Below are positions 12,675 to 24,503 of a stretch of 33,689 bases of DNA, in pieces (within the stretch, counting starts at the first letter, position 1; each line of letters starts with the position of its first letter). Under the pieces are notes generated by a model. It saw only the letters and a list, made by a program, of their open reading frames with translations, had not been told where the DNA came from and did not search any database. Origin of the DNA: an uncultured Caldilineaceae bacterium (GTDB lineage Bacteria > Chloroflexota > Anaerolineae > 4572-78 > J111); contig CAZDMM010000003.1 of assembly GCA_964505845.1 (NCBI GenBank), positions 2,139-35,827 of the forward strand, written 5' to 3'. A program made the translations under genes and the position numbers.

Positions 12675-13361
12675 TTAACGGACTTTGGCGGCCAGTCCGG
12701 CCCGGTCCAAAATAACAATCTGGCGGCGTTTTACCTGGATCAGCCCCTCCTCGTCCAAACTGCGCAGCGCCCGATGAATCACGTCAGGCACCGTCCCCAG
12801 GCGCGCAGCCATCTCAGCCTGGGTAGCCCACTGGTAACGCTCGATCACGGTTTGCTGATTATCCCCCAATTGCAGCAGCAGCAGCTTGGCTAACCGGGCC
12901 GTCACCGAACGGAGCGACAGGTCTTCGATGAGTGAGATGGTATGGAGCAGGCGCCCGGCCAGCGCCCGGATAATCAGCCGGGCCATCGCCGGATACCGGT
13001 CCAGCAGCTCCAGCAAGGTTGACTGCTGAATGGCCCACAACTCGCACGCTTCCTGGGCAATAAGGGTGGCGGGATGAGGCTGCTCGGCAAAGACAGGGGC
13101 AATATTGACCGGCTGGCCCGGGCCGATAAAGTCAAGAATCTGCTCGCGCCCTTCGGCCGATAATTTAACCGCTTTGACCCAGCCTCGATGAACCAGGTAT
13201 AAGGCTTCGGGCAGGTCGCCTTCTAAAAAAACAACCTCACCGGGGTTATAACTGCGCAACTGAGTCGCCGCGCGCAGTTCATTCCAGCCGCTTTGATCCA
13301 ATACCTTAAGCCAGGGAATCTGGCTCAAATCTGCCAACGGGTCGGGTATATTGCCGGGCAT
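12675..13361 (-). CDS. Crp/Fnr-family regulator (cNMP-binding domain plus C-terminal HTH), no N-terminal Cys cluster
   Basis: Start moved to the ATG at 13361 (MPGNIPDPL...) with GGAGGAG immediately upstream. The longer ORF to 13667 would overlap the cytochrome gene. HTH motif ATQAEMAARLGTVPDVIHRALRSLDEEGLI. Confidence 0.8.
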   Translation of the reverse strand: MPGNIPDPLADLSQIPWLKVLDQSGWNELRAATQLRSYNPGEVVFLEGDLPEALYLVHRGWVKAVKLSAEGREQILDFIGPGQPVNIAPVFAEQPHPATLIAQEACELWAIQQSTLLELLDRYPAMARLIIRALAGRLLHTISLIEDLSLRSVTARLAKLLLLQLGDNQQTVIERYQWATQAEMAARLGTVPDVIHRALRSLDEEGLIQVKRRQIVILDRAGLAAKVR

Positions 13362-13437
13362 TAAAACTCCTCCACCGGCCCTCATGATAGCCCTGTCCGG
13401 CCGCTTCCGCAAAGAAGGTTGGGCAGCCCACCGGCGC

Positions 13438-14484
13438 TCAATCATCCTCCGCCTCAGCCGGCTCATCATCCTTATGCTCGCGTCCGGTGGGGTGGCAAGC
13501 GGCGCAGTTTTGAAAATTACGAAGACCTTCTTCCAGATGTTTGGACGCGATTTCGGCCGGATTGTGCTCGTGGCAGCCGTAGCAACTATACCGGGTAAAG
13601 GCGTCTGGGTGGCAAACTGCACAGGCCAGCGGCCGGCCCTCATTTTTGTGAGCCAGGGGAAAAACATGGCTGGCCAGGTTCAGCCTCACCTGGGCCCAGC
13701 TTGAAGGCCGGTGGCAGGCGTCGCAGGCGGTTCCGGGCCGACTCTGATGCACATCATCGGCGCGGTGGCAACTGTAGCAAGCACGCGGGGTATGGGTAAA
13801 CTGCCGCCCCGTATGACATTCCAGGCAGCCGGCCGCCGCATGGGCCCCTTCCAGGGGGAAGAAAGCCGCATGGCCAGCCGCATCCAGGCTCCCCCGGCCC
13901 CGGTGGCAAACAAGGCAGTCGGCCCCAAAGCCGGCCTGGTGCGCAGCCATAAAATCGGGCCGGGCCGCCGTATGACACTCCACGCAGCCGGACGCTTCAA
14001 AATCATAACCGGCCTGGGGATGGCAGGCCGCACAGGATATGGGCCGGCCGGCATAATCCACCGAATGTTGAATCAGGGAAAAATTGGTAGCGGCCTCATG
14101 CGAAAAGCTCAGGCTGTTAAGGCGGGTAATCCTGACCTCGCGCCCCAAATGGTCCGGGTGACAGGCCAGGCAGTGATCAACCTCTTGAAAAACCCCATGC
14201 AGTTTTACCGCCTGCTGTATCTGGCCGGCCACACTGGTATGACAGGCCAGGCACAGGCCGGCCATTGGCCCTTGCAGCGGTTGGTGGCAGCGGTTACATT
14301 CAGCCTCAAAATCGGCGTGATGTTTAAAGCCTTGCAGCGGCCTGTTTTGGGGGTGAACGGCGGTTAGCGGGCCGGGGCTGAACATTTGCGCCCCCACTCC
14401 CACCAGCGCCGCCGCTACGCCCAGGATCAGGATCAGGGTCAGGCCACAGCTCCAGGAGGAAAAGAATAGGTCGCGTTTTGACAT
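13438..14484 (-). CDS. Dodecaheme c-type cytochrome with an N-terminal signal/anchor and an acidic C-terminal tail
   Basis: Twelve CxxCH motifs counted by hand (CNRCH, CLACH x2, CAACH x2, CVECH, CLVCH, CLECH, CYSCH, CDACH, CAVCH, CYGCH) in about 350 aa. Hydrophobic segment LTLILILGVAAALVGVGA. ATG at 14484 is preferred over the GTG at 14502. Confidence 0.85.
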   Translation of the reverse strand: MSKRDLFFSSWSCGLTLILILGVAAALVGVGAQMFSPGPLTAVHPQNRPLQGFKHHADFEAECNRCHQPLQGPMAGLCLACHTSVAGQIQQAVKLHGVFQEVDHCLACHPDHLGREVRITRLNSLSFSHEAATNFSLIQHSVDYAGRPISCAACHPQAGYDFEASGCVECHTAARPDFMAAHQAGFGADCLVCHRGRGSLDAAGHAAFFPLEGAHAAAGCLECHTGRQFTHTPRACYSCHRADDVHQSRPGTACDACHRPSSWAQVRLNLASHVFPLAHKNEGRPLACAVCHPDAFTRYSCYGCHEHNPAEIASKHLEEGLRNFQNCAACHPTGREHKDDEPAEAEDD

Positions 14485-14531
14485 GGCCGGCTCCCCAGCC
14501 ACAACCTGCTTCTGGCTGGATAAAGCCCCGG

Positions 14532-14556
14532 CAGGTTTTTGAAACCTGTCAGGTTT
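14532..14556. other. Three 7-mers CAGGTTT / AAACCTG / CAGGTTT able to form two mutually exclusive small hairpins
   Basis: 7-mers at 14532-14538, 14542-14548 and 14550-14556, read directly. They lie in the 64-nt gap between the membrane-protein gene and the cytochrome gene. Confidence 0.4.
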
Positions 14557-14566
14557 AGATTAGCGG

Positions 14567-15295
14567 TTAAGGGGGCCAGCCGCCATAATAGAGGGCGGCC
14601 CCAATGTGGATAGCAATTGTGGTGAACATGGTCAACCCCAGGGGCACGTGGAGGCGCCGCCACAACCTCAGCAGCCGTTGGGCGGTTTTGAGCGAGGCCA
14701 TCTGCCGCTCTAGCTCCTGGCGGCGCTGCAGCAGGCGCTCCAACTCTGGCGCATGGCGGCGCTCCGTTGGCTGCCCCCAGCAGGTCAGCCGCACCAGGGG
14801 GTTGGCCGGGGGCCTGCCAGTCTGAGCAGAAGCAACCGGGGCCGAATCCTCCAGTTTGGCTTGCAGTTGAGCCAGGCGGGCCGCTAATTCGTCGCGGCTC
14901 AGGGCGACTCCGGCCAGGGTGCGCGGCACGGCGGTATAAATGTAACGTCCCACAAAACCGCTCACCGTCACCAGCGCCGTCAGAGCCATAGCCAATCCGG
15001 CTAAACCGTTAAAGGTAAAGCCGGTATGGAGCAGCGCCAGCCAGGGGCCGACAATCCCGGTCACAATATGGCATGAGAGCCACAGTCGCACCGGCCCAAA
15101 GCGCAGCCAGCCCAGCCGCTTACGCAGAGAGTACAGCGTTTCGGTCAGCGCCATGCACAGCAGGCCCAGGCTGCCCAGGGCCAGACCGACCGGATGCCCC
15201 CCGGACGGCTCTGCCGCCAGCGCGTACACGGCATACCCCCCCAGCAGGAGAACAGCCTCGACAAAACTGATGAGAAGCTCAAGGCGTTCAATCAT
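14567..15295 (-). CDS. Integral membrane protein (about 5 TM) with two H-x13-H helices; candidate diheme b-type cytochrome
   Basis: 242 aa. His76/His90 in SCHIVTGIVGPWLALLH and His216/His230 in LHVPLGLTMFTTIAIH, both with 13 intervening residues. A charged coiled segment of about 90 aa precedes the last TM. No family name is assigned with confidence. Confidence 0.55.
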   Translation of the reverse strand: MIERLELLISFVEAVLLLGGYAVYALAAEPSGGHPVGLALGSLGLLCMALTETLYSLRKRLGWLRFGPVRLWLSCHIVTGIVGPWLALLHTGFTFNGLAGLAMALTALVTVSGFVGRYIYTAVPRTLAGVALSRDELAARLAQLQAKLEDSAPVASAQTGRPPANPLVRLTCWGQPTERRHAPELERLLQRRQELERQMASLKTAQRLLRLWRRLHVPLGLTMFTTIAIHIGAALYYGGWPP

Positions 15296-15325: not shown

Positions 15326-17326
15326 CTATTTTCTAAAGAGCGCAGCCACCACTATGGCTACCAGCAACAGGGCCAGGCTAAAGCCTATCCAACCCGGGCC
15401 AAATAACCCAACAGCCCGGCGGCCTGTCTCCGGCAGGAACACCACCGGCAAAACGCTCGTGGCCGCCGGCTGAACTGCGGCCACCGGCGTGGCCGGGATG
15501 GGGGTAGGCGGTGGAGGCCGGTTGTCGTCGTCATCATCATCCTGGTCAGAGGGGGTTGGGGTGGGCGTCGGCAGGGGGGTAGAGGTAGGCGCGGCCGCCG
15601 GCACCAGGACCTGTACTTGATTCGAGAGCCGGTCTACCCCCTGGTCAAAGTGCAGCACGGCCTGGTTAAAAATGGTCAACGGCGGCGGGTTGGCCGCGTT
15701 AACCTGAGCGCGCATGGTCATAACCCGCACATCGGCCGGGGCCAGCACCGGGATGATCCAGGTGACTACCTGGCCCGCCACCTGGGTAAAGCCGGCGTTA
15801 ACCTCCGGCGGGCCGAGGAGATTGACCTCAGGGGGCAGAGCATCCACCACCTGGACATTGGTGGCATTGCCGTTGCTTGACTGCGCCTGCGACAGGGTGA
15901 GGGTGAAGGTAAGCGCCTGTCCTACCTGGGCCTGATTGGTATTGACCCCTTTGGTTACCAGGGGGTCAATCATTGGGGTATTAACCGGGGTAAAGGTGGC
16001 GGCGGTATCGGTTAATCCCTGGCTGCTGGTAACCCAGCCGGTGTTGGTGATGACCGCGCCCAGCGGCGTGGCGCTGTCTACCTGCACCAGCATGGTCACG
16101 CTGGCCGAACTATTTGGGTTGAGCGCGCCCAGCGGCCAACTCACCACCCCGTTGGCGTCGGGGCCAAAGAAGGGCGCGCTGGCGCTGACAAAGATAGTAC
16201 CGGGCGGGGTCGTATCGGTGATGAGTACGTTGGTTAACAGGGTTGCGGAATTATTGGCGGCGGTTAAGGTATAAGTCAACAATCCCCCGGCCTGAACCGG
16301 GTTGGGTGCAGCCAGCTTGGTCAGGGCCAGGCTGCCACAGCCGCTTAACCAGGCCACCGCCTGGCGGGCTACCCTGGCGTTATCTTGTTTAAAATAGCCG
16401 GCCACCGCGCCGACCACTGAGTTCCAGTTGCTATCGGCAAAAAGGGCCACACAGCCGGCCCCATCATTAAAGGCCGCTGCCACCGGCGCCAGCAGCGGGT
16501 TCGCGTCGGCGTCGCTGGTAACAAGGGCATTGCTGGTGGGGGCTAAGGAGGAACTGGCCAGCAGTTCTACCCCATTCACTCCGCTGAGGATCGGGTGGCC
16601 GGCAAAGTTGTCGGCTTGATAAATTACCCAGGAGTTGGCCGGGCCGGGCGGGTCAAAATCAGTCGGGTCGCTGAGGGCCACGCCGCCCTGCTGGCTGTAG
16701 CCGTAAGCCTGGAACAAGGCTTCGGCGCCGGCCCTGAACGAGCCAAACTCACCCGAAAGCATTAAACCGTGACCGCTGCTGGTCCAGGCCCGGAGCACAG
16801 CGCCGTCGGCCGCCGTATAAGGAGAAGCCAGGGCAAAGCCTCGGGTTGACCCCTGCACGATCAAAACGGCCACACAAGGCGGAATCGCACCGGCGCTTAT
16901 GTCAATGGTTCCAACACTAAAACCGTTGACGGCCAGGTCGTTGACAAAATCGGCAATGTCGGTGGGGTCCTGGCCCCGGGAAATCTCAAAACCAACCACA
17001 GGGGGACTCATCGTCGTGCAGTCCACCGCCGTTACGGCCATGGGGGAGACTTCGCCGGCCGGAGCCAGCGCCCCCACCTCCAGCCAACCGGCGGTGGTTA
17101 GCTCCAGGGCCGGGGTGGCCGGAGGCTCCGATGTTGGGGGAGGGGGCATATTTTCCGGCGGCGGGGGTAAGGGCGTAACCGATGGCTCTGACGTGGCCGG
17201 CGGGGCCGGGGTAGAGGCCGATTCCTCTCCTGCCTGGTCGGGCGCTTGAGCGCCTACCGGCCCAACCATGAGGCCGAGGGTCAATAAAATAACCGGTAGG
17301 ATTAAACACAGCCGCTTGTTAATCAC
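15326..17326 (-). CDS. LPXTG-anchored surface protein with DUF11-type repeats and a Pro/Thr/Asp-rich stalk
   Basis: The C-terminus LPETG plus hydrophobic segment plus RK tail is a sortase signal. DUF11-like repeats (LTKLAAPNPVQAGGLLTYTLTAANNS...). The GTG at 17326 is proposed as start (M/VINKRLCLILPVILLTLGLMVGPVGAQA) with GGAGGAG just upstream. The ORF track instead starts at a TTG at 17386. Confidence 0.7.
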   Translation of the reverse strand: MINKRLCLILPVILLTLGLMVGPVGAQAPDQAGEESASTPAPPATSEPSVTPLPPPPENMPPPPTSEPPATPALELTTAGWLEVGALAPAGEVSPMAVTAVDCTTMSPPVVGFEISRGQDPTDIADFVNDLAVNGFSVGTIDISAGAIPPCVAVLIVQGSTRGFALASPYTAADGAVLRAWTSSGHGLMLSGEFGSFRAGAEALFQAYGYSQQGGVALSDPTDFDPPGPANSWVIYQADNFAGHPILSGVNGVELLASSSLAPTSNALVTSDADANPLLAPVAAAFNDGAGCVALFADSNWNSVVGAVAGYFKQDNARVARQAVAWLSGCGSLALTKLAAPNPVQAGGLLTYTLTAANNSATLLTNVLITDTTPPGTIFVSASAPFFGPDANGVVSWPLGALNPNSSASVTMLVQVDSATPLGAVITNTGWVTSSQGLTDTAATFTPVNTPMIDPLVTKGVNTNQAQVGQALTFTLTLSQAQSSNGNATNVQVVDALPPEVNLLGPPEVNAGFTQVAGQVVTWIIPVLAPADVRVMTMRAQVNAANPPPLTIFNQAVLHFDQGVDRLSNQVQVLVPAAAPTSTPLPTPTPTPSDQDDDDDDNRPPPPTPIPATPVAAVQPAATSVLPVVFLPETGRRAVGLFGPGWIGFSLALLLVAIVVAALFRK

Positions 17327-17382
17327 CCCACTCCTCCCCTCCCCAAAGATTTGGGGGCTTTCATGGCGCCTCTCCAATCTTG

Positions 17383-18504
17383 TCAATAACCTACCGCTCT
17401 AAACTCGTGGCGTGCAATCTGCTGGTTTAACGGGTCAATACAAATCTCAAAGGGCGTAGTCTGACTCCCCACGATGACTTCAGGATAGGCCGGGGCATAT
17501 TCGCCAAAACCGGCTACCTGCCCCTGGTCATCATAAGTAGTGGCCATGATAACCAAATAATCCGCCAGCGGAGAGCCTGTGTTTTGAACCTGGCCGCTCA
17601 GACAATACATGTTCGATTCACCGGCCCATTGGTTGATATTGGCAAATTGAAAATCCTGGCGGGGGAAATCGGTAGCCGGGGCCGATAGGGCCACCAGGTC
17701 AAGACGATAGATGGGCTGAGGGCTTTCGACTGTCAGCTCAAAGGGCACATGCGCGCCCGGCGGGATCACCTCGACCGGCACATAACTCAGGGTATCAATT
17801 TCATCTTCGATGACCTGGTCCTGGGCATCGTAAAAAATGCCAGACACTTCAACCGCCTGTTGGGGGCTGCCGGTACTGTTGATGAGTTCGCCCACCACCA
17901 CGGCGTTGCCTTCCTCAAGCGAGGTGTGAACCGCTCTAAAAGACCATCCAGGGACTTCGGAGTTGGGCTCTGGCTCAGAGTCTGGCGGCGGGGGAAGGGT
18001 GGCGGTAGGATTCGGCTCGATGGGCGGCAGGGCCGTTGGCTGCACCGGGAACGTGGGCGTAACTGCAACGGTGGGAGGCGCGGCCAGGGTGGGCTGGCCG
18101 GCGTCTGGCGAGGCCACTATCACCGGCTGGGCTGGGGCCTCGCTGCCCGGCTGCGGTATGGGGGTGGGGGTCAAGGTGGGCAGGTGTAAGGGGGGGGCGG
18201 CCCTGGCCGTCGCCGTTGGGGTAGCCGGGGCCGGTTGAGCCGGCGGCAGCGCGCCGGGCAAGGCGGCCGCCGGCTTTGCCTGGGCCACAGCAGCCGTGGT
18301 GGGGGTAAAAGTGGGCAAAAGGTTCTTAATGCGAACGGCCCCGGAGGGCGCCGCCCCACCCCACGAGCAGGCCAGCGAAACCAGGGCCGCCAGGGTGATG
18401 AAGACCGGCGACGGCAGCCATGCAGCGCCTCGCTCCGGGCCGGCGGCCTGAGAGTCGCTGTCGCCAGGGTTTTGAGCACCACAATTTTGACGATGGTTGA
18501 ACAT
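17383..18504 (-). CDS. Membrane-anchored Pro/Ala/Thr-rich protein with two C-terminal FxLYD-like beta domains
   Basis: 373 aa. TM segment VFITLAALVSLACSWGG, then a low-complexity linker of about 140 aa. Two related roughly 90-aa modules follow (GELINSTGSPQQAVEVSGIFYDAQDQVI; GQVQNTGSPLADYLVIMATTYDDQGQVA). The FxLYD assignment is tentative. Confidence 0.55.
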   Translation of the reverse strand: MFNHRQNCGAQNPGDSDSQAAGPERGAAWLPSPVFITLAALVSLACSWGGAAPSGAVRIKNLLPTFTPTTAAVAQAKPAAALPGALPPAQPAPATPTATARAAPPLHLPTLTPTPIPQPGSEAPAQPVIVASPDAGQPTLAAPPTVAVTPTFPVQPTALPPIEPNPTATLPPPPDSEPEPNSEVPGWSFRAVHTSLEEGNAVVVGELINSTGSPQQAVEVSGIFYDAQDQVIEDEIDTLSYVPVEVIPPGAHVPFELTVESPQPIYRLDLVALSAPATDFPRQDFQFANINQWAGESNMYCLSGQVQNTGSPLADYLVIMATTYDDQGQVAGFGEYAPAYPEVIVGSQTTPFEICIDPLNQQIARHEFRAVGY

Positions 18505-18534: not shown

Positions 18535-20409
18535 CTATTTCACAATGAGCGGTAGAAATACCTGGCCCAGCACCGCTGTCCCGGCGGCCGCCGCATCGTT
18601 GGCCGGGTTAAGGTCGGGTCTGGCGGCGCTTACGGCAACCGTGTTGGTGATCGTTCCCGCCTGGGTAGGGGTGGTCGCCAGGGTGACCACTGCCCCCGCG
18701 CCCTGGGTGAGGTCGCCCAGCGTGCAGGTGATGATACCTCCGGCGGGCCAACCGCAACTGCCCTGGCTGGGTACAATTGAAGCGATGCTTAAACCGGGCG
18801 GCAGGGTATCGCTGAGGGTAACGGCGGTGGCCGTAAAAGGGCCGGTATTCGTTACCAGCAGGGTGTAAGTTAAGGGTTGGCCGGCCAGGATAGAACCAGA
18901 CGAGGCGACCGGAGTCACCGACAGGTCAAAGAGCGATTGGAAACCGGCCAAAGCGTCAATCCGGCCATTGCCATAGGTATTATCTGCGCCCGCTGCACCC
19001 AAATCTACCACACTGTTCAACAGGGCCGTCTCCTGCTGGGCTACCGTCAGCGACGGAGCGGCATTCAAGAGCAAAGCCAGCACCCCGGCCACGTGCGGCG
19101 CGGCAAAAGAGGTGCCGGTGGCATTGGTATATGCTTCAAAACGGTCGGTGGTATGAACGCTGACCCCCGGCGCCACCACCTCTGGAAAAACCGTCCCCTC
19201 ATTACAGCCGGGGGGTGAGGTGGGGCGCGGCCCGCGGCTGCTGCCGGTATAAATGACGCTGCTGTTATTGATAGCGCCTACGGCAAAAGCTTCTGGATAG
19301 TTGGCCGGGCTATAACTGGTTGAACTGGTGGGGCCGCTGTTGCCGGCGGCAAAAATGGGCAAGATGCCGGCGGCGCGCAGGGCTTGCAGGTCGGGCTGAA
19401 ATTCCAGGTTGCACCCGTTGGGGTTGCCATAGGTCCAGGAGTTATTGACCACCTGCGGCGCGTCTGCGGTAGCCGGGTTGTCATCCGGGTCAAGCAGCCA
19501 TTGAAAGCCCTGGTGAAAGGCGGCGGTTGTGCCCGTTCCATCATCTTTAAAGACTTTAACCGCAATCCAGTGGGCCTGGGGAGCAATGCCAAAGGCAACG
19601 CCGCCATCTTCTCCGCCCACCATCAGGCCCATAGTGCGGGTGCCGTGGCCGCTGCTGCTCCCGGCCAGGTCGGTGGGTGTGGATGGATGCTGGTTGTACG
19701 GGTCGTACCAGCTATTGGAGCCGCCCCGCCACTTGGGGCCAAGGTCTGGGTGAGCGCCGTCTACCCCGGTATCCATGTTGGCTATGACCAGGCCCTGCCC
19801 TTGATAGCCCAAATCCCACAACGCCTGAACATTAATAAGCGTTAGATTGGGTTGGGCGGCCTGGGCGCCGATTTGCCCCGGCTCTGCCGGCAAGAGCGGC
19901 GGGGCCTGGATCGTTTCATTGAGGCTGATCTTGAGCACCTCGGGCCGGGCCGCCAACTCTTGAATCACGCCCGGAGGGGCTGAAACGGCCAGGCCGTTGA
20001 AAATCCAAAAATACGTGGCCGGGCCGGCCTGTCCCTGGGCCTGCCGTTGGGCAAGCCAGGCCCTGAGCGCCCGCTGGCTGAGAGCGGCTTTGGCCTGCAG
20101 GGTTTCTACCACCCGGTTAAGCCGGGCCGCCCGGTTGAGCCGGGCCGCGTCGGAGGCCAACCGGGGCAAATCTACCTGCTCTTTGAGGGTAACAATCACG
20201 CTCAACTGCTCACCGGCCTTGAGCGCCCGCAGCGCCGCCTGCACCGGGGGCGTTAGAGTGGCCGCCTCCGCAGGAGCGCCCCCGGCGGTGAAGGCCGGCA
20301 GCGCAGCCTGAACCTGGGCGGCCGGCCGGTGAAGCGGCAGGAGCACAAACAGCAAAGCCAGCACTACGCCCCCCACGAGGGCCTTCTCGCCCAGGCTGCC
20401 ACCGGTCAT
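18535..20409 (-). CDS. Secreted subtilisin-like serine protease (S8) with an I9-type propeptide and a C-terminal DUF11 repeat
   Basis: Catalytic triad contexts NMDTGVD, HGTRTMG and GTSFAAPHVAG. DUF11-like LTYTLLVTNTGPFTATAVTLSDTLPPGL...SQGSC. The start codon lies 3 nt after the copCD-like stop. Confidence 0.85.
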   Translation of the reverse strand: MTGGSLGEKALVGGVVLALLFVLLPLHRPAAQVQAALPAFTAGGAPAEAATLTPPVQAALRALKAGEQLSVIVTLKEQVDLPRLASDAARLNRAARLNRVVETLQAKAALSQRALRAWLAQRQAQGQAGPATYFWIFNGLAVSAPPGVIQELAARPEVLKISLNETIQAPPLLPAEPGQIGAQAAQPNLTLINVQALWDLGYQGQGLVIANMDTGVDGAHPDLGPKWRGGSNSWYDPYNQHPSTPTDLAGSSSGHGTRTMGLMVGGEDGGVAFGIAPQAHWIAVKVFKDDGTGTTAAFHQGFQWLLDPDDNPATADAPQVVNNSWTYGNPNGCNLEFQPDLQALRAAGILPIFAAGNSGPTSSTSYSPANYPEAFAVGAINNSSVIYTGSSRGPRPTSPPGCNEGTVFPEVVAPGVSVHTTDRFEAYTNATGTSFAAPHVAGVLALLLNAAPSLTVAQQETALLNSVVDLGAAGADNTYGNGRIDALAGFQSLFDLSVTPVASSGSILAGQPLTYTLLVTNTGPFTATAVTLSDTLPPGLSIASIVPSQGSCGWPAGGIITCTLGDLTQGAGAVVTLATTPTQAGTITNTVAVSAARPDLNPANDAAAAGTAVLGQVFLPLIVK

Positions 20410-20412
20410 GCC

Positions 20413-22584
20413 CTATAACCTGTTTCCAGGCGCCGCCACCCGCTCTGCTTCATCGGCTACCCCTCGCAGCTCTGGCATGGGTGCAGGCCAGGAGCGCGCC
20501 CAACGCCGGCGCCCCAGCCACAGCCCGGCCGCCAACATCAGCCCCAAGCCGAGTATCCCGGCGGCTGCGGTGAGGGTCGGCTCCAGAGGCCGCTTAGAAA
20601 TAATGACCGGGCGGGCCGGACCTGCCGGGGCCACCAGCCACGTGAAGCGAGCCACGCTGTCTTCAAGGCCCTGCCGCCGGACCACTACCTGCACCTGCCA
20701 GGCCCCGGCCAGGCTGAGGTTGCCGCCGCCCACCTGGTAGAGTCCCGGCTCAAGCTCAAGCGCGTCGGCGGAGGTGCGGCCTAAATCCTGGTCCAAAAAG
20801 GTAAAGTGCAGGATAACCCGCATCACCTCGGCCGGGGGTGGACGCCGGGTGCTCACCGCCCGCACGGTGAAGATATTTTGGCCGGGCCGGTTGGGCTTGG
20901 CCGAGAAGGTGACCAGCATATCATCGGCCATCTGGTCAAGCATGGCCGGAATTTCTTCCGCCGCCACCTCAAACTCCGCCCCACGCGCCGGCGGAGCCGC
21001 CGTGACCAGGCCCGTAACCAGCAAGACCACCAACCCTACCCCGGCTTCGGCTAAAAGCAGGGCCGGCAGGCGGCAGAGGGGGAGAGGCGTCCACCCCGGC
21101 GGGCGATGCAGCCAACGCGCCAGCGGTGCGGCCAGGGAGGGATGCAGCAGCAGCACATTCAACAGGCCCAGCACGCCGGCCAGCAGGAACAAGCTAATTT
21201 TGCCCAGGAGGGCCTGCCCGTACAGGGTAGCCAGCAAAGCATCAAACGAGGCCGCCTGCCGGCCGGTGTTGTACAACCCGGTAGCCAGCAGCAGCCCCAC
21301 GCTGAGGGCAGCCAGGCCGCTAAAAGCCCCCCAGCCGGCCCGCGCCAGGGCAGCCCCATCAGCTTGATGCTGGTTCCGCCTCAGCAGCGGCAATCCGGCC
21401 AGCAGCAGGGCCAGCAGCCCACCCAGCCACAAGCCGGCCGCCAGCAGGTGGAGCGTATCTACGGCCACCGCCACAGCCGTGTTTGGGGTGAGGGCCGCCG
21501 CATGCCCGGTCAAAGCCTGCACCGCCAGCAGAGCCAGCAGCAGCAGGCCGGTCAGCGCCAAAAGCGATTTGTGGTTCAACAGAGAAGCAGCGGTCAGGAA
21601 TTTAACTCCTGCTGCGTTGCCCTGGCCCTTCTCAAGCGTCAAGGATTGTACCGGCCCGCGCTGCAGCCGGAACAGCCCGGCCAGCAGCGCCGCCAAAATC
21701 CCCTGGCGCAGCAGCCACAGCAGGCCCCAACGAGTTTGGCCAAGCAAAGGCCAGATTATGCCGGCCGGGGAGGCGCTCTCCGGCAGCGTTTCTAGCAGCA
21801 GCATCATCTGCCACAACAGCAGGCCGAACCCTGCCGCCAGGGCCAGGCCGGCGCAGGCGGCCGCCAGGGCCAAAACCCGGCTTTGGGCGGCAATCCGCAG
21901 CGCCTTAAGCGGCGGAGCTTCGCCGGGCGAGGGGCGGGTAAAGCCCAAAACCCAATAAGCCACCCCCACACTGCCGGCCAGGGTCAGCAGAAAAGAATAG
22001 TTAAGCCAGCGCAGCAGCACCTCCAGCGCCGGGATCTGGGTTTCGGCCTGGAACGCTGCGGCGCCGGACAGGTCTGCCTTAGCCCCTACCCCAACCCCCC
22101 GCAGGCCCTGGGTAAAATGGCCGTCAGCCTCCGACAGCACCCGCCAGCGCACGCTGTAAAGGCCAGGCGGCAGAGGGGGCAGCTTCAAGAGCAAAAGCTT
22201 CTCGGCCGGCTCAACCCGGAGCTTGTGAAGCCGCACTACCCGGCCCTGGGCGTCTAAAATTTGGGCGCTGCTAAACTGGGAAGAAATGGCTTCGCTGAAC
22301 CAAAGGCGCACCTCAGACGGCGCCTTGGCCAGGATAGCGTTGTCGGCCGGGTCGGAGCGCACCAGGATAGCATGAGCCGCAGCACTGGTGGGAATTACAG
22401 CCGCCGCCAGAAGGGCCAGCAGGGCCGCTAACCAGCTTCTTCTAAAAGCCTGTCTGAAAAGCTTCCCGGAGGCTCGATCCTGAGGAAGACCGGCTGTTAA
22501 CGCCAGAGATTGTCTCTGGAAACCAGCCTCCGGGAAGCTAAACCACCGGCTTTTCAGACAGTTTTTAAGGATTAGGTTGACCAT
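20413..22584 (-). CDS. CopC-CopD fusion protein (YcnJ-like) with an extra C-terminal YtkA/FixH-like domain and a terminal TM
   Basis: Mature N-terminus HAILVRSDPADN... with SEADGH (CopC D-x-H). A poly-TM CopD-like region of about 340 aa follows, then a beta-rich roughly 110-aa domain and a final TM. The start is uncertain because the first about 45 codons run through a nested inverted repeat. Confidence 0.75.
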   Translation of the reverse strand: MVNLILKNCLKSRWFSFPEAGFQRQSLALTAGLPQDRASGKLFRQAFRRSWLAALLALLAAAVIPTSAAAHAILVRSDPADNAILAKAPSEVRLWFSEAISSQFSSAQILDAQGRVVRLHKLRVEPAEKLLLLKLPPLPPGLYSVRWRVLSEADGHFTQGLRGVGVGAKADLSGAAAFQAETQIPALEVLLRWLNYSFLLTLAGSVGVAYWVLGFTRPSPGEAPPLKALRIAAQSRVLALAAACAGLALAAGFGLLLWQMMLLLETLPESASPAGIIWPLLGQTRWGLLWLLRQGILAALLAGLFRLQRGPVQSLTLEKGQGNAAGVKFLTAASLLNHKSLLALTGLLLLALLAVQALTGHAAALTPNTAVAVAVDTLHLLAAGLWLGGLLALLLAGLPLLRRNQHQADGAALARAGWGAFSGLAALSVGLLLATGLYNTGRQAASFDALLATLYGQALLGKISLFLLAGVLGLLNVLLLHPSLAAPLARWLHRPPGWTPLPLCRLPALLLAEAGVGLVVLLVTGLVTAAPPARGAEFEVAAEEIPAMLDQMADDMLVTFSAKPNRPGQNIFTVRAVSTRRPPPAEVMRVILHFTFLDQDLGRTSADALELEPGLYQVGGGNLSLAGAWQVQVVVRRQGLEDSVARFTWLVAPAGPARPVIISKRPLEPTLTAAAGILGLGLMLAAGLWLGRRRWARSWPAPMPELRGVADEAERVAAPGNRL
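22450..22561 (-). repeat. 112-nt nested inverted-repeat element (MITE-like or structured leader) inside the annotated 5' end of the copCD-like ORF
   Basis: AGCTTCCCGGAGGCT (22460-22474) pairs perfectly with AGCCTCCGGGAAGCT (22525-22539). The outer arms CTGTCTGAAAAGC (22450-22462) and GCTTTTCAGACAG (22549-22561) also pair. An inner 7-bp hairpin CCAGAGA-TTG-TCTCTGG lies at 22503-22519. Confidence 0.7.
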
Positions 22585-22605: not shown

Positions 22606-22634
22606 ATTATATGAAAAGGTCTCCTGGGTGTTAA
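22606..22634 (-). promoter_or_regulatory. Candidate promoter TTAACA-17 nt-TATAAT for the copCD-like unit, bracketed by the dyad GGAGAC (22594-22599) / GTCTCC (22619-22624)
   Basis: Read on the minus strand: -35 at 22634-22629, a perfect -10 at 22611-22606, with an exact 17-nt spacer. It lies in an AT-rich island about 21 nt upstream of the ATG at 22584. Confidence 0.45.
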
Positions 22635-22737: not shown

Positions 22738-23337
22738 CTATGGCTTGAAGATGACCGGCAAAAAAATCTGGCGCACCCTGCCCACCAACTCGCCATGGCT
22801 ATCAAACATAGGTAGTTTGGCCATGAAGGTGGGAGTAATAGCGCCGGGTTGGAGGAGTTGAGCGGTGCAAATCACCTGGGTATGCTCTTTGACCAGCACC
22901 CGGCCCGACCCCTGCTCGATGCCGGCCGTGTTCAACGGAAATTCGGTAAACAGGGTCGCTTGGGTGGAATAGGTGCCTGTCTCGTGGGCCGACAAAATGT
23001 CGGTGAAGGGCGACGCCAACGCCGACCCTCCCCCACTCTGAAAAAATTGCACCTCCACCGTCACCGCCGTCAACCCAAAGTTGGTGCAGTGAACCGAGGT
23101 CGCTATCTGATCCTCCCCCGTGCTGTCGTTGGCTACCCCCGTGAACATATACAACACCGTAAAGCCCGGCGACGGCGCATCCCCCAACCCTGACCCTTCC
23201 AGACTGCGCTGCTCTGCCGCCACCCCCTCTTCCCCGCTCTCTCGCCCCGGCCCCTGCGCCAACACCACAGCCAGGCTTACCACCAGCCCCAATCCCAAAG
23301 CCAGACCCAACGTGACAACCGTTTTTATCCTCCGCAT
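22738..23337 (-). CDS. Small secreted protein of unknown function (full-length copy)
   Basis: ATG at 23337 (MRRIKTVVTLGLALGLGLVVSLAVVLAQG) with GGAG 8 nt upstream. Signal peptide, beta-rich body with 2 Cys, and C-terminus ...RQIFLPVIFKP. No family recognised. Confidence 0.65.
   Translation of the reverse strand: MRRIKTVVTLGLALGLGLVVSLAVVLAQGPGRESGEEGVAAEQRSLEGSGLGDAPSPGFTVLYMFTGVANDSTGEDQIATSVHCTNFGLTAVTVEVQFFQSGGGSALASPFTDILSAHETGTYSTQATLFTEFPLNTAGIEQGSGRVLVKEHTQVICTAQLLQPGAITPTFMAKLPMFDSHGELVGRVRQIFLPVIFKP
22826..23320. repeat. Copy 1 of a 495-bp exact tandem duplication (period 584 bp)
   Basis: ORF translations in all three frames are identical between the copies, and the junction bases were checked by hand (identity 22826-23320 = 23410-23904). 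Confidence 0.85.
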
Positions 23338-23378
23338 CAAACCATCTCCGGCAGGCCAGCCTACTTTTCAGACAGTTT

Positions 23379-23918
23379 TTAAGGCTTGTACATTTCCAAC
23401 TCTGAGACAAAGGTGGGAGTAATAGCGCCGGGTTGGAGGAGTTGAGCGGTGCAAATCACCTGGGTATGCTCTTTGACCAGCACCCGGCCCGACCCCTGCT
23501 CGATGCCGGCCGTGTTCAACGGAAATTCGGTAAACAGGGTCGCTTGGGTGGAATAGGTGCCTGTCTCGTGGGCCGACAAAATGTCGGTGAAGGGCGACGC
23601 CAACGCCGACCCTCCCCCACTCTGAAAAAATTGCACCTCCACCGTCACCGCCGTCAACCCAAAGTTGGTGCAGTGAACCGAGGTCGCTATCTGATCCTCC
23701 CCCGTGCTGTCGTTGGCTACCCCCGTGAACATATACAACACCGTAAAGCCCGGCGACGGCGCATCCCCCAACCCTGACCCTTCCAGACTGCGCTGCTCTG
23801 CCGCCACCCCCTCTTCCCCGCTCTCTCGCCCCGGCCCCTGCGCCAACACCACAGCCAGGCTTACCACCAGCCCCAATCCCAAAGCCAGACCCAACGTGAC
23901 AACCAGCTTCTTTTGCAT
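23379..23918 (-). CDS. C-terminally truncated paralog of the small secreted protein (possible duplication remnant or pseudogene)
   Basis: It has its own ATG at 23918 with AAGGAGG upstream and a different N-terminus (MQKKLVV). It is identical to the full-length copy through ...AITPTF, then diverges to VSELEMYKP-stop at the duplication junction and lacks the last 28 aa. Confidence 0.5.
   Translation of the reverse strand: MQKKLVVTLGLALGLGLVVSLAVVLAQGPGRESGEEGVAAEQRSLEGSGLGDAPSPGFTVLYMFTGVANDSTGEDQIATSVHCTNFGLTAVTVEVQFFQSGGGSALASPFTDILSAHETGTYSTQATLFTEFPLNTAGIEQGSGRVLVKEHTQVICTAQLLQPGAITPTFVSELEMYKP
23410..23904. repeat. Copy 2 of the 495-bp exact tandem duplication
   Basis: See 22826-23320. 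Confidence 0.85.
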
Positions 23919-23945: not shown

Positions 23946-24503
23946 TTACCGCCATGACCAGCAGCCGGCCTTAACCCGGCGCCGCAGCGCCGCTGCCAGC
24001 CCCACCAGGCAGACAAGCCCCAACCCGGCCGCCAGCCAGCCGAGCGACCTGGCCCTGGCCCTGCCGGGGATTGTGGCCGGGGTTGAAACCTGGTTGGCGT
24101 CAGCCCGGCCTACGGAAAAGCTAAATTCACCGGCGGTGGTATCGCCATCATCGGCGCTGACGGCCGTCCAGAGGACCCGGTAAGCGCCGGTGGGCAGCGC
24201 AGCCGGCAGGGTAACTTGCATGGAGGCATGCGCCGGGTCACTAAGGTCCACCTCGCCATCGCCGTTATCAACCGGCTGCCCGCCGGCATCCACCACTTGC
24301 AGCGCGCTCAGATGGGTGTCAAGCTCCTGGCTAAACCAGGCTGTTACCTGCCTGGGTGGTTGAGCCAACACGGCTTCATTTTCAGGCATGGATTTGAGCA
24401 GCAGCGCATGAGCGGCGGCTGCGGCCGCCAGCCACAGGCAGGCCAACCCACTCACCAGAAGGAAGGCCAGCCGGGCCGCGGCAGAACCTTGAGGCCGTCT
24501 CAT
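23946..24503 (-). CDS. copC: CopC-domain protein with a C-terminal transmembrane anchor
   Basis: The signal peptide ends AAAAA|HALLLKSMPEN, giving an N-terminal His as in CopC/YobA. Body VLWTAVSADDGDTTAGEFSFSV. C-terminal hydrophobic segment LGWLAAGLGLVCLVGLAAAL followed by RRR. Confidence 0.75.
   Translation of the reverse strand: MRRPQGSAAARLAFLLVSGLACLWLAAAAAAHALLLKSMPENEAVLAQPPRQVTAWFSQELDTHLSALQVVDAGGQPVDNGDGEVDLSDPAHASMQVTLPAALPTGAYRVLWTAVSADDGDTTAGEFSFSVGRADANQVSTPATIPGRARARSLGWLAAGLGLVCLVGLAAALRRRVKAGCWSWR

Follow-up and report, generated by a model that had tools for sequence, protein, structure and literature searches.

The 33,689-nt stretch analysed here (the window; contig CAZDMM010000003.1, positions 2,139–35,827, from an uncultured Caldilineaceae bacterium) carries on its minus strand two adjacent genes, one encoding a membrane protein with five transmembrane (TM) helices, hereafter the 5-TM protein, and the other encoding a cytochrome c with twelve haem-binding motifs. 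A preliminary description of this DNA, made from the sequence alone, had suggested that the pair might conduct electrons across the membrane from haem b to multihaem c. The two genes are the last of an operon that opens with a copper-import gene. They were delimited as open reading frames (ORFs), together with His conservation and topology for the first and CxxCH motifs for the second.

14567–15295, minus strand: 5-TM protein, 242 aa, candidate dihaem cytochrome b
13438–14502, minus strand: dodecahaem cytochrome c, membrane-anchored

Histidines, topology, and haem motifs of the two proteins

The 5-TM protein contains His residues at positions 34, 76, 90, 181, 216, and 230, four of which make up two H-x13-H pairs, H76/H90 and H216/H230. 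Hydropathy and an AlphaFold model based on 51 sequences (mean predicted local distance difference test score (pLDDT), 81.6) agree on five TM helices, and the helices of the model span residues 2–27, 35–60, 69–94, 98–157, 166–172, and 176–239. H76/H90 lie in TM3 (helix 69–94) and H216/H230 in TM5, at the membrane end of helix 176–239. The upstream gene and its two His pairs, as given in the preliminary description, were seen alike in the ORF, the hydropathy profile, and the model. TM4 and TM5 run on in the model into a long cytoplasmic helical hairpin of 90–120 aa, the tip of which is approximately 27 residues shorter in the window copy than in all homologues. This shortening is not an assembly error, because the DNA of the window recurs almost unchanged in many bioreactor and sludge runs that are independent of one another. 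An unusual composition of the window protein was flagged during tree building.

H76, H90, H216, and H230 were invariant in 20 and in 51 close homologues, and H34 and H181 vary among homologues. The four residues were also invariant in all of the 81–86 translations covering them among 86 loci. The alignment of these 86 diverse representatives, which extends down to approximately 25% identity, contains only eight invariant columns, namely G44, K59, H76, G83, H90, G113, H216, and H230. Poor conservation of the His residues, or a location outside the membrane, had been named in the preliminary description as evidence that would speak against a conduit; neither was found, all four residues being invariant across the family and situated inside TM3 and TM5.

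Positive charges are distributed unevenly over the loops of the aligned family. The mean number of Lys plus Arg was 5.5 in loop 2-3, which has 0 acidic residues, and 21 in the hairpin (loop 4-5), compared with 0.04 in loop 1-2, 0.7 in loop 3-4, and 0.6 at the C-terminus. According to the positive-inside rule, this pattern places the N-terminus, loop 2-3, and the hairpin in the cytoplasm, and it gives TM3 and TM5 the same inside-to-outside orientation. With TM3 and TM5 parallel, H76 and H216 come to lie equally deep in the membrane, close to its inner face, with H90 and H230 close to its outer face. A spacing of i to i+14 puts both His residues of one helix on one face (320 degrees), at an estimated distance of approximately 21 Å for a rise of 1.5 Å per residue. 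An H-x13-H layout is that of bis-His dihaem proteins such as cytochrome b and the ferric-reductase domains. We therefore propose H76 and H216 as the ligands of an inner haem b and H90 and H230 as those of an outer haem b, and haem b binding by the 5-TM protein is a prediction from these residues. One member of the family has an N-terminal 2Fe-2S ferredoxin domain fused to the 5-TM core, and zinc-ribbon or GYF_2 domains precede the core in some others (P0253, P0262, and P0257). These N-terminal fusions fit a cytoplasmic N-terminus, and the 2Fe-2S case also fits a redox role.

The cytochrome ORF gives 354 aa when read from a GTG codon. An ATG at 14484, preceded 6 nt upstream by GGGGAG, gives 348 aa, identical to the database protein P0121, and is the likelier start. 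The preliminary description of the product as having 12 CxxCH motifs in about 350 aa, with an N-terminal anchor, agrees with a script count of exactly 12 motifs (residues 69, 84, 111, 157, 173, 196, 226, 242, 260, 294, 307, and 333) in 348–354 aa, and with a single hydrophobic segment at the N-terminus (approximately residues 20–38). The protein contains 30 His and only 4 Met residues. It matches PF14522 (c7-type; 37.3 bits, cut-off 24.8) and PF02085 (class III; 37.2 bits, cut-off 22.9) above the gathering scores. The profile matches, the CxxCH motifs, and the presence of His as distal ligands assign it to the class III/c7-type multihaem cytochromes as judged from sequence. An alignment of 30 relatives shows, besides the 12 CxxCH motifs, exactly 12 more invariant His residues, which is consistent with twelve bis-His haems. 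A conserved FSPGPLT motif directly follows the N-terminal helix and suggests a fixed juxtamembrane docking geometry. The best matches of the cytochrome family profile in the PDB were the 16-haem HmcA cytochromes (E 1.8e-5), followed by ActA of alternative complex III, the Geobacter dodecahaem cytochrome GSU1996, and Thermincola OcwA. The AlphaFold model of the cytochrome was of low confidence (pLDDT 63; predicted template modelling score 0.38), and Foldseek gave no usable match with it.

The source organism occurs in bioreactor and sludge metagenomes. In the metatranscriptomes X26 and X28, small contigs lie on both genes with 0–1 mismatches, which shows low-level in situ transcription of both. 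Two contigs, 14232–14620 and 14443–14593, cross the junction between the two genes; they come from two runs of less certain type and may reflect DNA carry-over. The data are compatible with co-transcription.

Distribution, kinship, and gene neighbours of the 5-TM family

A word-indexed search returned more than 3,575 relatives of the 5-TM protein, approximately 268 aa long, labelled hypothetical, without a Pfam domain, and mostly from metagenome-assembled genomes (MAGs) of Chloroflexota. At 50% identity, at least 4,345 clusters were recovered in an exhaustive profile search at E values up to 1e-3, and 2,569 of them at values up to 1e-10. Scanning one genome per species yielded 536 loci, nearly all of them from Chloroflexota (Anaerolineae), and 80 of these were kept for the species-representative analysis. 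All 80 belong to Chloroflexota (Ardenticatenaceae, Promineifilaceae, Caldilineaceae, and Anaerolineales), except for one contig binned as Zixibacteria. This contig (L049; Zixiibacteriota) has the same gene order as a Promineifilaceae locus (L007), and their 5-TM proteins are sisters on the tree; the likeness suggests mis-binning or recent transfer.

In 66 of the 80 loci, a multihaem cytochrome gene lies on the same strand no more than 100 bp from the 5-TM gene, and 74 loci have one within 2 kb; the other loci are mostly truncated by contig ends. The preliminary description had held that absence of co-occurrence in other genomes would count against it, and the opposite was found. The linked cytochromes, counted as full-length ORFs, contain 6–51 CxxCH motifs. 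The window cytochrome is orthologous over its full length to a conserved 12-haem partner (35–45% identity), and 18-haem partners are internal expansions of the 12-haem form. Metagenome loci provided an independent set: a scan with the single 5-TM protein found none, a repeat with an alignment of the clade gave loci, and of the 23 loci in which 1.5 kb or more could be seen on each side, 22 have a multihaem cytochrome no further than 5 kb away. Two distant members of approximately 290 aa adjoin multihaem cytochromes of 587 and 709 aa. A neighbouring gene of one of these two, in L091, has a type IX secretion system tail, a sign that this member may come from outside Chloroflexota. In two MAGs there are two separate loci (L013/L057 and L014/L055), every locus with its own set of cytochromes. 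Giant cytochromes are encoded in the 5-TM clusters of L075 (6324–9926), L076 (14214–17792), and L050 (13880–17203), with 51, 50, and 44 CxxCH motifs, respectively.

When the neighbouring ORFs were clustered, two further genes emerged beside the 5-TM gene in most loci, one for a small 2[4Fe-4S] ferredoxin and one for a flavoprotein of approximately 450 aa. By tblastn, 71 of the 86 loci have both on the same strand and no more than 6 kb away, and the gap between the flavoprotein gene and the 5-TM gene is often only 11–50 bp. Typical gene orders are MHC12-MHC(20-33)-5TM-Fd-FNR, 5TM-MHC18-Fd-FNR-MHC(16-30), and MHC18-MHC(16-42)-Fd-FNR-5TM, where MHC is a multihaem cytochrome with its number of haems, Fd the ferredoxin, and FNR the flavoprotein. 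The best NCBIfam matches of the flavoprotein are PadH, the N-terminal part of NirB, HcaD, and NorW, and its end resembles Rubredoxin_C; the protein is of the NADH:ferredoxin/rubredoxin-reductase type. The gene content suggests a cytoplasmic, quinone-independent electron donor in these relatives.

The profile searches proposed in the preliminary description (DUF4405, ferric reductase, and cytochrome b561-like families) returned recurrent matches, all below threshold. The window protein matched Ni_hydr_CYTB (PF01292) with E 0.02 and 15.1 bits (gathering score 30.1), Ferric_reduct (PF01794) with E 0.19 and 12.3 bits (cut-off 28), and DUF4405 (PF14358) with E 0.32 (gathering score 26.7 bits), and an NCBIfam scan of it gave no match. 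When the 86 diverse members were compared with 24,736 Pfam models, sub-threshold matches were obtained to DUF4405 in 17 members (best E 1.6e-5), to Ni_hydr_CYTB in 11 (best E 9.9e-5), and to Ferric_reduct in 6 (best E 3.6e-4), and every other family appeared once or twice. The recurrence of three dihaem-b families is hard to put down to chance and points to distant kinship; a known family of unrelated function, which the preliminary description had regarded as fatal to its proposal, did not emerge. The search of the PDB with the family profile was discarded as a source of relatives, since it gave only coiled-coil and noise matches with E above 0.1.

Haem b binding has been shown for DUF4405 and FezC (PMC11334425). 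The nearest counterparts of the 5-TM protein in mechanism are DUF4405, MsrQ (YedZ), the PepSY-like FoxB, FezC, and the eukaryotic ferric-reductase (NOX/FRE/STEAP) domain, which it resembles in having four TM His residues on two parallel helices, predicted here to hold two stacked b haems, and in the proposed supply of an extracytoplasmic redox partner with electrons from the cytoplasmic side. With the ferric-reductase domains it shares two putative bis-His sites formed by His residues approximately 13 residues apart on TM3 and TM5. It differs from them in lacking the six-TM core, having instead five TM helices and the cytoplasmic hairpin. The partner also differs, being a multihaem cytochrome c rather than a flavinylated protein or a molybdo-protein, and the donor in relatives would be a separate ferredoxin and flavoprotein in contrast to a fused FAD/NADPH domain. 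Kinship at the superfamily level is suggested, and the sequence and fold searches place the 5-TM family in no known family and in none of DUF4405, Ni_hydr_CYTB, and Ferric_reduct. Full-text literature searches of incomplete coverage gave no description of the 5-TM family or of the four-gene module. We take it for a new family whose architecture and wiring are also new, of a kind already known, in which a transmembrane dihaem-b conduit would feed a multihaem cytochrome.

Proposed electron path and competing explanations

The motifs, the conservation, the topology signal, the gene linkage, and the in situ transcripts make it likely, with appreciable room for doubt, that the two proteins form a two-subunit transmembrane electron conduit from haem b to multihaem c. 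The suggestion of the preliminary description has thus gained comparative support, with haem b binding and electron transfer predicted from sequence. We infer the direction of flow, the donor, and the acceptor as follows. The 5-TM protein, with its N-terminus in the cytoplasm, would hold two stacked b haems on the parallel helices TM3 and TM5, and electrons would pass from the inner haem (H76 and H216) near the cytoplasmic face to the outer haem (H90 and H230). The outer b haem would feed the cytochrome, which would be tethered by its N-terminal helix and carry its twelve bis-His c haems on the outer face of the membrane. In most relatives, electrons would be delivered to the inner b haem from NAD(P)H by way of the FAD flavoprotein and the 2[4Fe-4S] ferredoxin, and these two proteins would probably dock on the Arg/Lys-rich cytoplasmic face or on the helical hairpin. 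The net effect would be a quinone-independent, non-energy-conserving export of electrons, that is, an electron sink, which in its logic would be a "split NOX/ferric reductase".

Several results weigh against this reading. Every Pfam match of the 5-TM family falls below the gathering score, and Foldseek returned nothing at E<0.001 with the 5-TM model. The hhalign comparison of the family profile with E. coli MsrQ and E. coli YodB, each as a single-sequence template, gave probabilities of 0.5% and 0.1%, respectively. Furthermore, a ferredoxin or flavoprotein gene is missing from the contig of the window, for 18 kb upstream and for 14 kb downstream.

In system logic, the Hmc/Tmc complexes and the Geobacter entry points CbcL/CbcBA/ImcH are closest to the proposed conduit. 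The Hmc/Tmc complexes of sulfate reducers likewise combine an external multihaem cytochrome of c3 type with a cytochrome b in the membrane and an iron-sulfur protein in the cytoplasm, and the HmcA 16-haem cytochromes are the best solved relatives of the cytochrome profile. However, the 5-TM protein is unrelated to the NarI/HdrE-type cytochrome b, and no NarI/HdrE-type cytochrome b, NrfD-like, or HdrD-like subunit was found in the window or in the related loci. The cytoplasmic module of the relatives is instead a 2[4Fe-4S] ferredoxin with a Pyr_redox_2 NADH-type flavoprotein, and the host is monoderm, so that the cytochrome would face the wall or the outside. The Geobacter systems also have a membrane module, of b type or NapC type, that feeds multihaem c towards the outside. 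They are quinol-dependent, of HydC/FdnI or NapC type, and reside in diderm cells, whereas the 5-TM family has no such match, and the conserved genes around it suggest that NAD(P)H and ferredoxin would serve as donor in the cytoplasm.

The known inner-membrane entries to multihaem cytochromes, such as CbcL, ImcH, and CymA, are quinol oxidases, and this precedent favours a menaquinol:cytochrome c oxidoreductase. In such an enzyme the 5-TM dihaem b protein would oxidise quinol, as do NarI, CybB, CbcL, and CbcB, and pass the electrons to the 12-haem cytochrome, leaving the ferredoxin and flavoprotein to serve otherwise. The sub-threshold Ni_hydr_CYTB matches and the absence of a ferredoxin or reductase gene within 10–18 kb in the window clade agree with this explanation. 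It is nevertheless unlikely, given how tightly the ferredoxin and flavoprotein genes adjoin the 5-TM gene in 71 of the 86 loci (often at 11–50 bp) and that one member has an Fe-S domain fused at its cytoplasmic N-terminus. The large conserved cytoplasmic hairpin and the invariant basic face suggest a protein partner rather than a lipid-phase substrate, and no quinone-site motif was identified in the 5-TM protein.

Because the wiring of a conduit is neutral as to direction, the cytochrome could instead collect electrons from an extracellular donor (a partner cell or cathode, for instance, or Fe(II) or Cu(I)), to be carried to the cytoplasmic side by the b haems. Multicopper-oxidase-like proteins are among the neighbours in the window, and the cultured relative Ardenticatena maritima performs both anodic and cathodic electron transfer (PMC5808234). 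We consider inward flow quite unlikely. Electrons from bis-His haems would have to go uphill to reduce ferredoxin or NAD(P)+, and a coupling module is lacking. Each of the 12 c haems has a distal His, as is typical of low-potential export wires, and the hosts are mostly fermentative or organotrophic sludge Anaerolineae, for which an electron sink is the simpler need.

Conserved TM His residues in strict adjacency to multihaem cytochrome genes would also fit a dedicated biogenesis factor that, much as CcsBA and CcmF employ haem bound to TM His residues, handles or reduces haem, or supplies reductant for its attachment to the neighbouring haem-rich cytochromes, outside the working electron path; the ferredoxin and flavoprotein could then keep haem or the CxxCH thiols reduced. 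Such a role is very unlikely. The 5-TM protein has no WWD or Trp-rich motif of the CcsA-like type and no external His pairs, H34 not being conserved, and its doubled H-x13-H is the layout of electron-transfer dihaem proteins. The two MAGs with two loci and separate cytochrome sets (L013/L057 and L014/L055) are also unlike a general maturation system. Least probable of all is a transporter or sensor in which the four His residues bind Cu or Fe and the coiled-coil hairpin signals or oligomerises, as the copper operon around the window copy and the automatic naming of two database entries as "signal transduction histidine kinase" might suggest, because most members have cytochrome, ferredoxin, and flavoprotein neighbours and no copper context, the 14-residue spacing (approximately 21 Å between the His residues of one helix) is too wide for a single metal site, and Pfam scans found no kinase or transporter domain.

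Sludge, sediments, and aquifers are habitats in which Anaerolineae and related Chloroflexota abound. Abundant and very large multihaem cytochromes have been described in Chloroflexota, from which extracellular electron transfer was inferred, and the same papers describe no membrane partner of these cytochromes (PMC7399161; bioRxiv 10.1101/2021.08.23.457424; PMC5808234). The 5-TM family, which occurs in hundreds of species and nearly always together with cytochromes and the ferredoxin/flavoprotein pair, is a specific and testable candidate for the step that takes electrons across the monoderm membrane to the cytochromes. If the proposed donor is correct, these bacteria would possess an outlet to the exterior for the electrons of NAD(P)H that does not depend on quinones, and this would bear on models of fermentation, of iron and humics reduction, and of bioelectrochemistry.

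The copper operon of the window

The operon to which the pair belongs reads, on the minus strand, CopC-CopD, S8 protease, FxLYD, DUF11, 5-TM, and 12-haem cytochrome, with gaps of -4 to 64 nt. The features beside the pair, assigned by Pfam (CopC-CopD), by domain search (S8 protease), and by consensus match only (promoter-like site), are as follows.

22606–22634, minus strand: promoter-like site TTAACA-17-TATAAT (11/12), just upstream of CopC-CopD
20413–22584, minus strand: YcnJ-like CopC-CopD protein with a C-terminal extracytoplasmic domain; first gene of the operon
18535–20409, minus strand: subtilisin-like S8 protease with a C-terminal DUF11 domain
17383–18504, minus strand: FxLYD-domain (DUF3426-like) protein, secreted or anchored; conserved in the operon
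15326–17386, minus strand: DUF11/CLIPPER-repeat surface protein with a C-terminal LPETG sortase signal
12675–13385, minus strand: Crp/Fnr-family regulator directly downstream of the cytochrome; likely start at 13385 or 13361

The CopC-CopD protein matches Pfam CopC (2.1e-18) and CopD (7.2e-14), and also the NCBIfam models CopD and CopC below their equivalog cut-offs. Its signal peptide ends in AAA directly before a His residue (AAA/HAIL...), and it contains a D-G-H motif (...EADGH...) of the Cu(II)-site type. The presence of both domains, of the N-terminal His, and of the D-x-H motif qualifies it by sequence as a YcnJ-like importer, and in this respect the operon resembles that of Bacillus subtilis YcnJ (CopC-CopD-YtkA). 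We know of no YcnJ operon that includes cytochromes. Still further upstream are a gene for a second CopC, some small genes of unknown function, and genes for three multicopper-oxidase-like cupredoxin proteins. NirK-type nitrite reductase was considered as an identity for these cupredoxin proteins, as acceptors of the cytochrome, and was rejected after only weak partial matches. The Crp/Fnr-family regulator gene is not conserved among the related loci.

The order CopCD, S8 protease, unknown protein of approximately 350 aa, DUF11, 5-TM, and 12-haem cytochrome recurs in L001, L086, L087, and L093, which are 55–60% identical. It is kept in L004 (40% identical) with a PKD/VWA protein in the place of DUF11 and, apart from this replacement, is the same in all seven CopCD-linked loci (the window and six relatives) with a visible upstream side. 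In L094, where that side is not visible, the 5-TM gene adjoins a 12-haem cytochrome gene. CopC, CopD, and the S8 protease form a single ORF of 1,185 aa in L087 (1737–5294), a fusion that ties the protease functionally to the copper importer. On the maximum-likelihood tree, the window, L001, L086, and L087 form a clade with 100/100 support inside the ferredoxin-linked family, and L004 stands elsewhere, beside a ferredoxin-linked locus. Its separate position means that the copper link requires at least two changes, having arisen or been kept at least twice.

Because the pair constitutes the last two genes of this conserved YcnJ-like copper operon, the likeliest acceptor in the window clade would be extracellular Cu(II), free or bound to CopC, and the Cu(I) formed would go to CopD or to the neighbouring cupredoxin proteins. 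That the clade passes electrons to surface copper, reducing Cu(II) to Cu(I) for import by CopD or for cupredoxin loading, is a tentative possibility suggested by the gene order. The wider proposal, that the family is an unrecognised class of quinone-independent conduit ("split NOX") recruited in the window clade as an extracytoplasmic cupric reductase for a YcnJ-type importer, is doubtful as a whole. It counts against the copper assignment that the link consists of gene order alone, in few loci (the window, L001, L004, L086, L087, and L093). The known cupric reductase CcoG is a 4Fe-4S membrane protein unrelated to the 5-TM/cytochrome pair, for which a reductase role is suggested by gene order only. 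According to the study of YcnJ, it is an open question whether Cu(II) reduction is catalysed by an enzyme, and a localised cupric reductase of the CcoG kind has no homologue in Firmicutes (PMC13344008). The copper variant of the window is a candidate for such enzyme-catalysed Cu(II) reduction in Gram-positive copper import.

Several minor observations concern the same region. The stand-alone CopC paralogue (23946–24503) has D-G-D in place of D-G-H, so that its copper binding may differ or be absent. At the end of the DUF11 protein, LPETG is followed by a hydrophobic stretch and then RK, and no sortase gene was seen in the window. An Rfam scan of the window gave no RNA family. Nested inverted repeats at 22442–22569 (21-nt arms, 86%; 15-nt arms, 100%) lie inside the first codons or leader of the CopC-CopD ORF, and a 24-nt motif of this region, CTTTTCAGACAGTTTTTAAGG, recurs at 23364–23387, upstream of a 195-aa gene; the repeats and the motif may represent a shared operator or leader structure. 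A direct repeat (22826–23125 and 23410–23709) has a period of 584 nt and 100% identity for at least 300 nt; it doubles a portion of a gene for a small secreted protein, located between CopC and CopC-CopD. The G+C content rises from approximately 0.55–0.57 at 1–12 kb, the region of an ABC transporter, to 0.60–0.68 over the copper/cytochrome cluster, with the step at approximately 12000.

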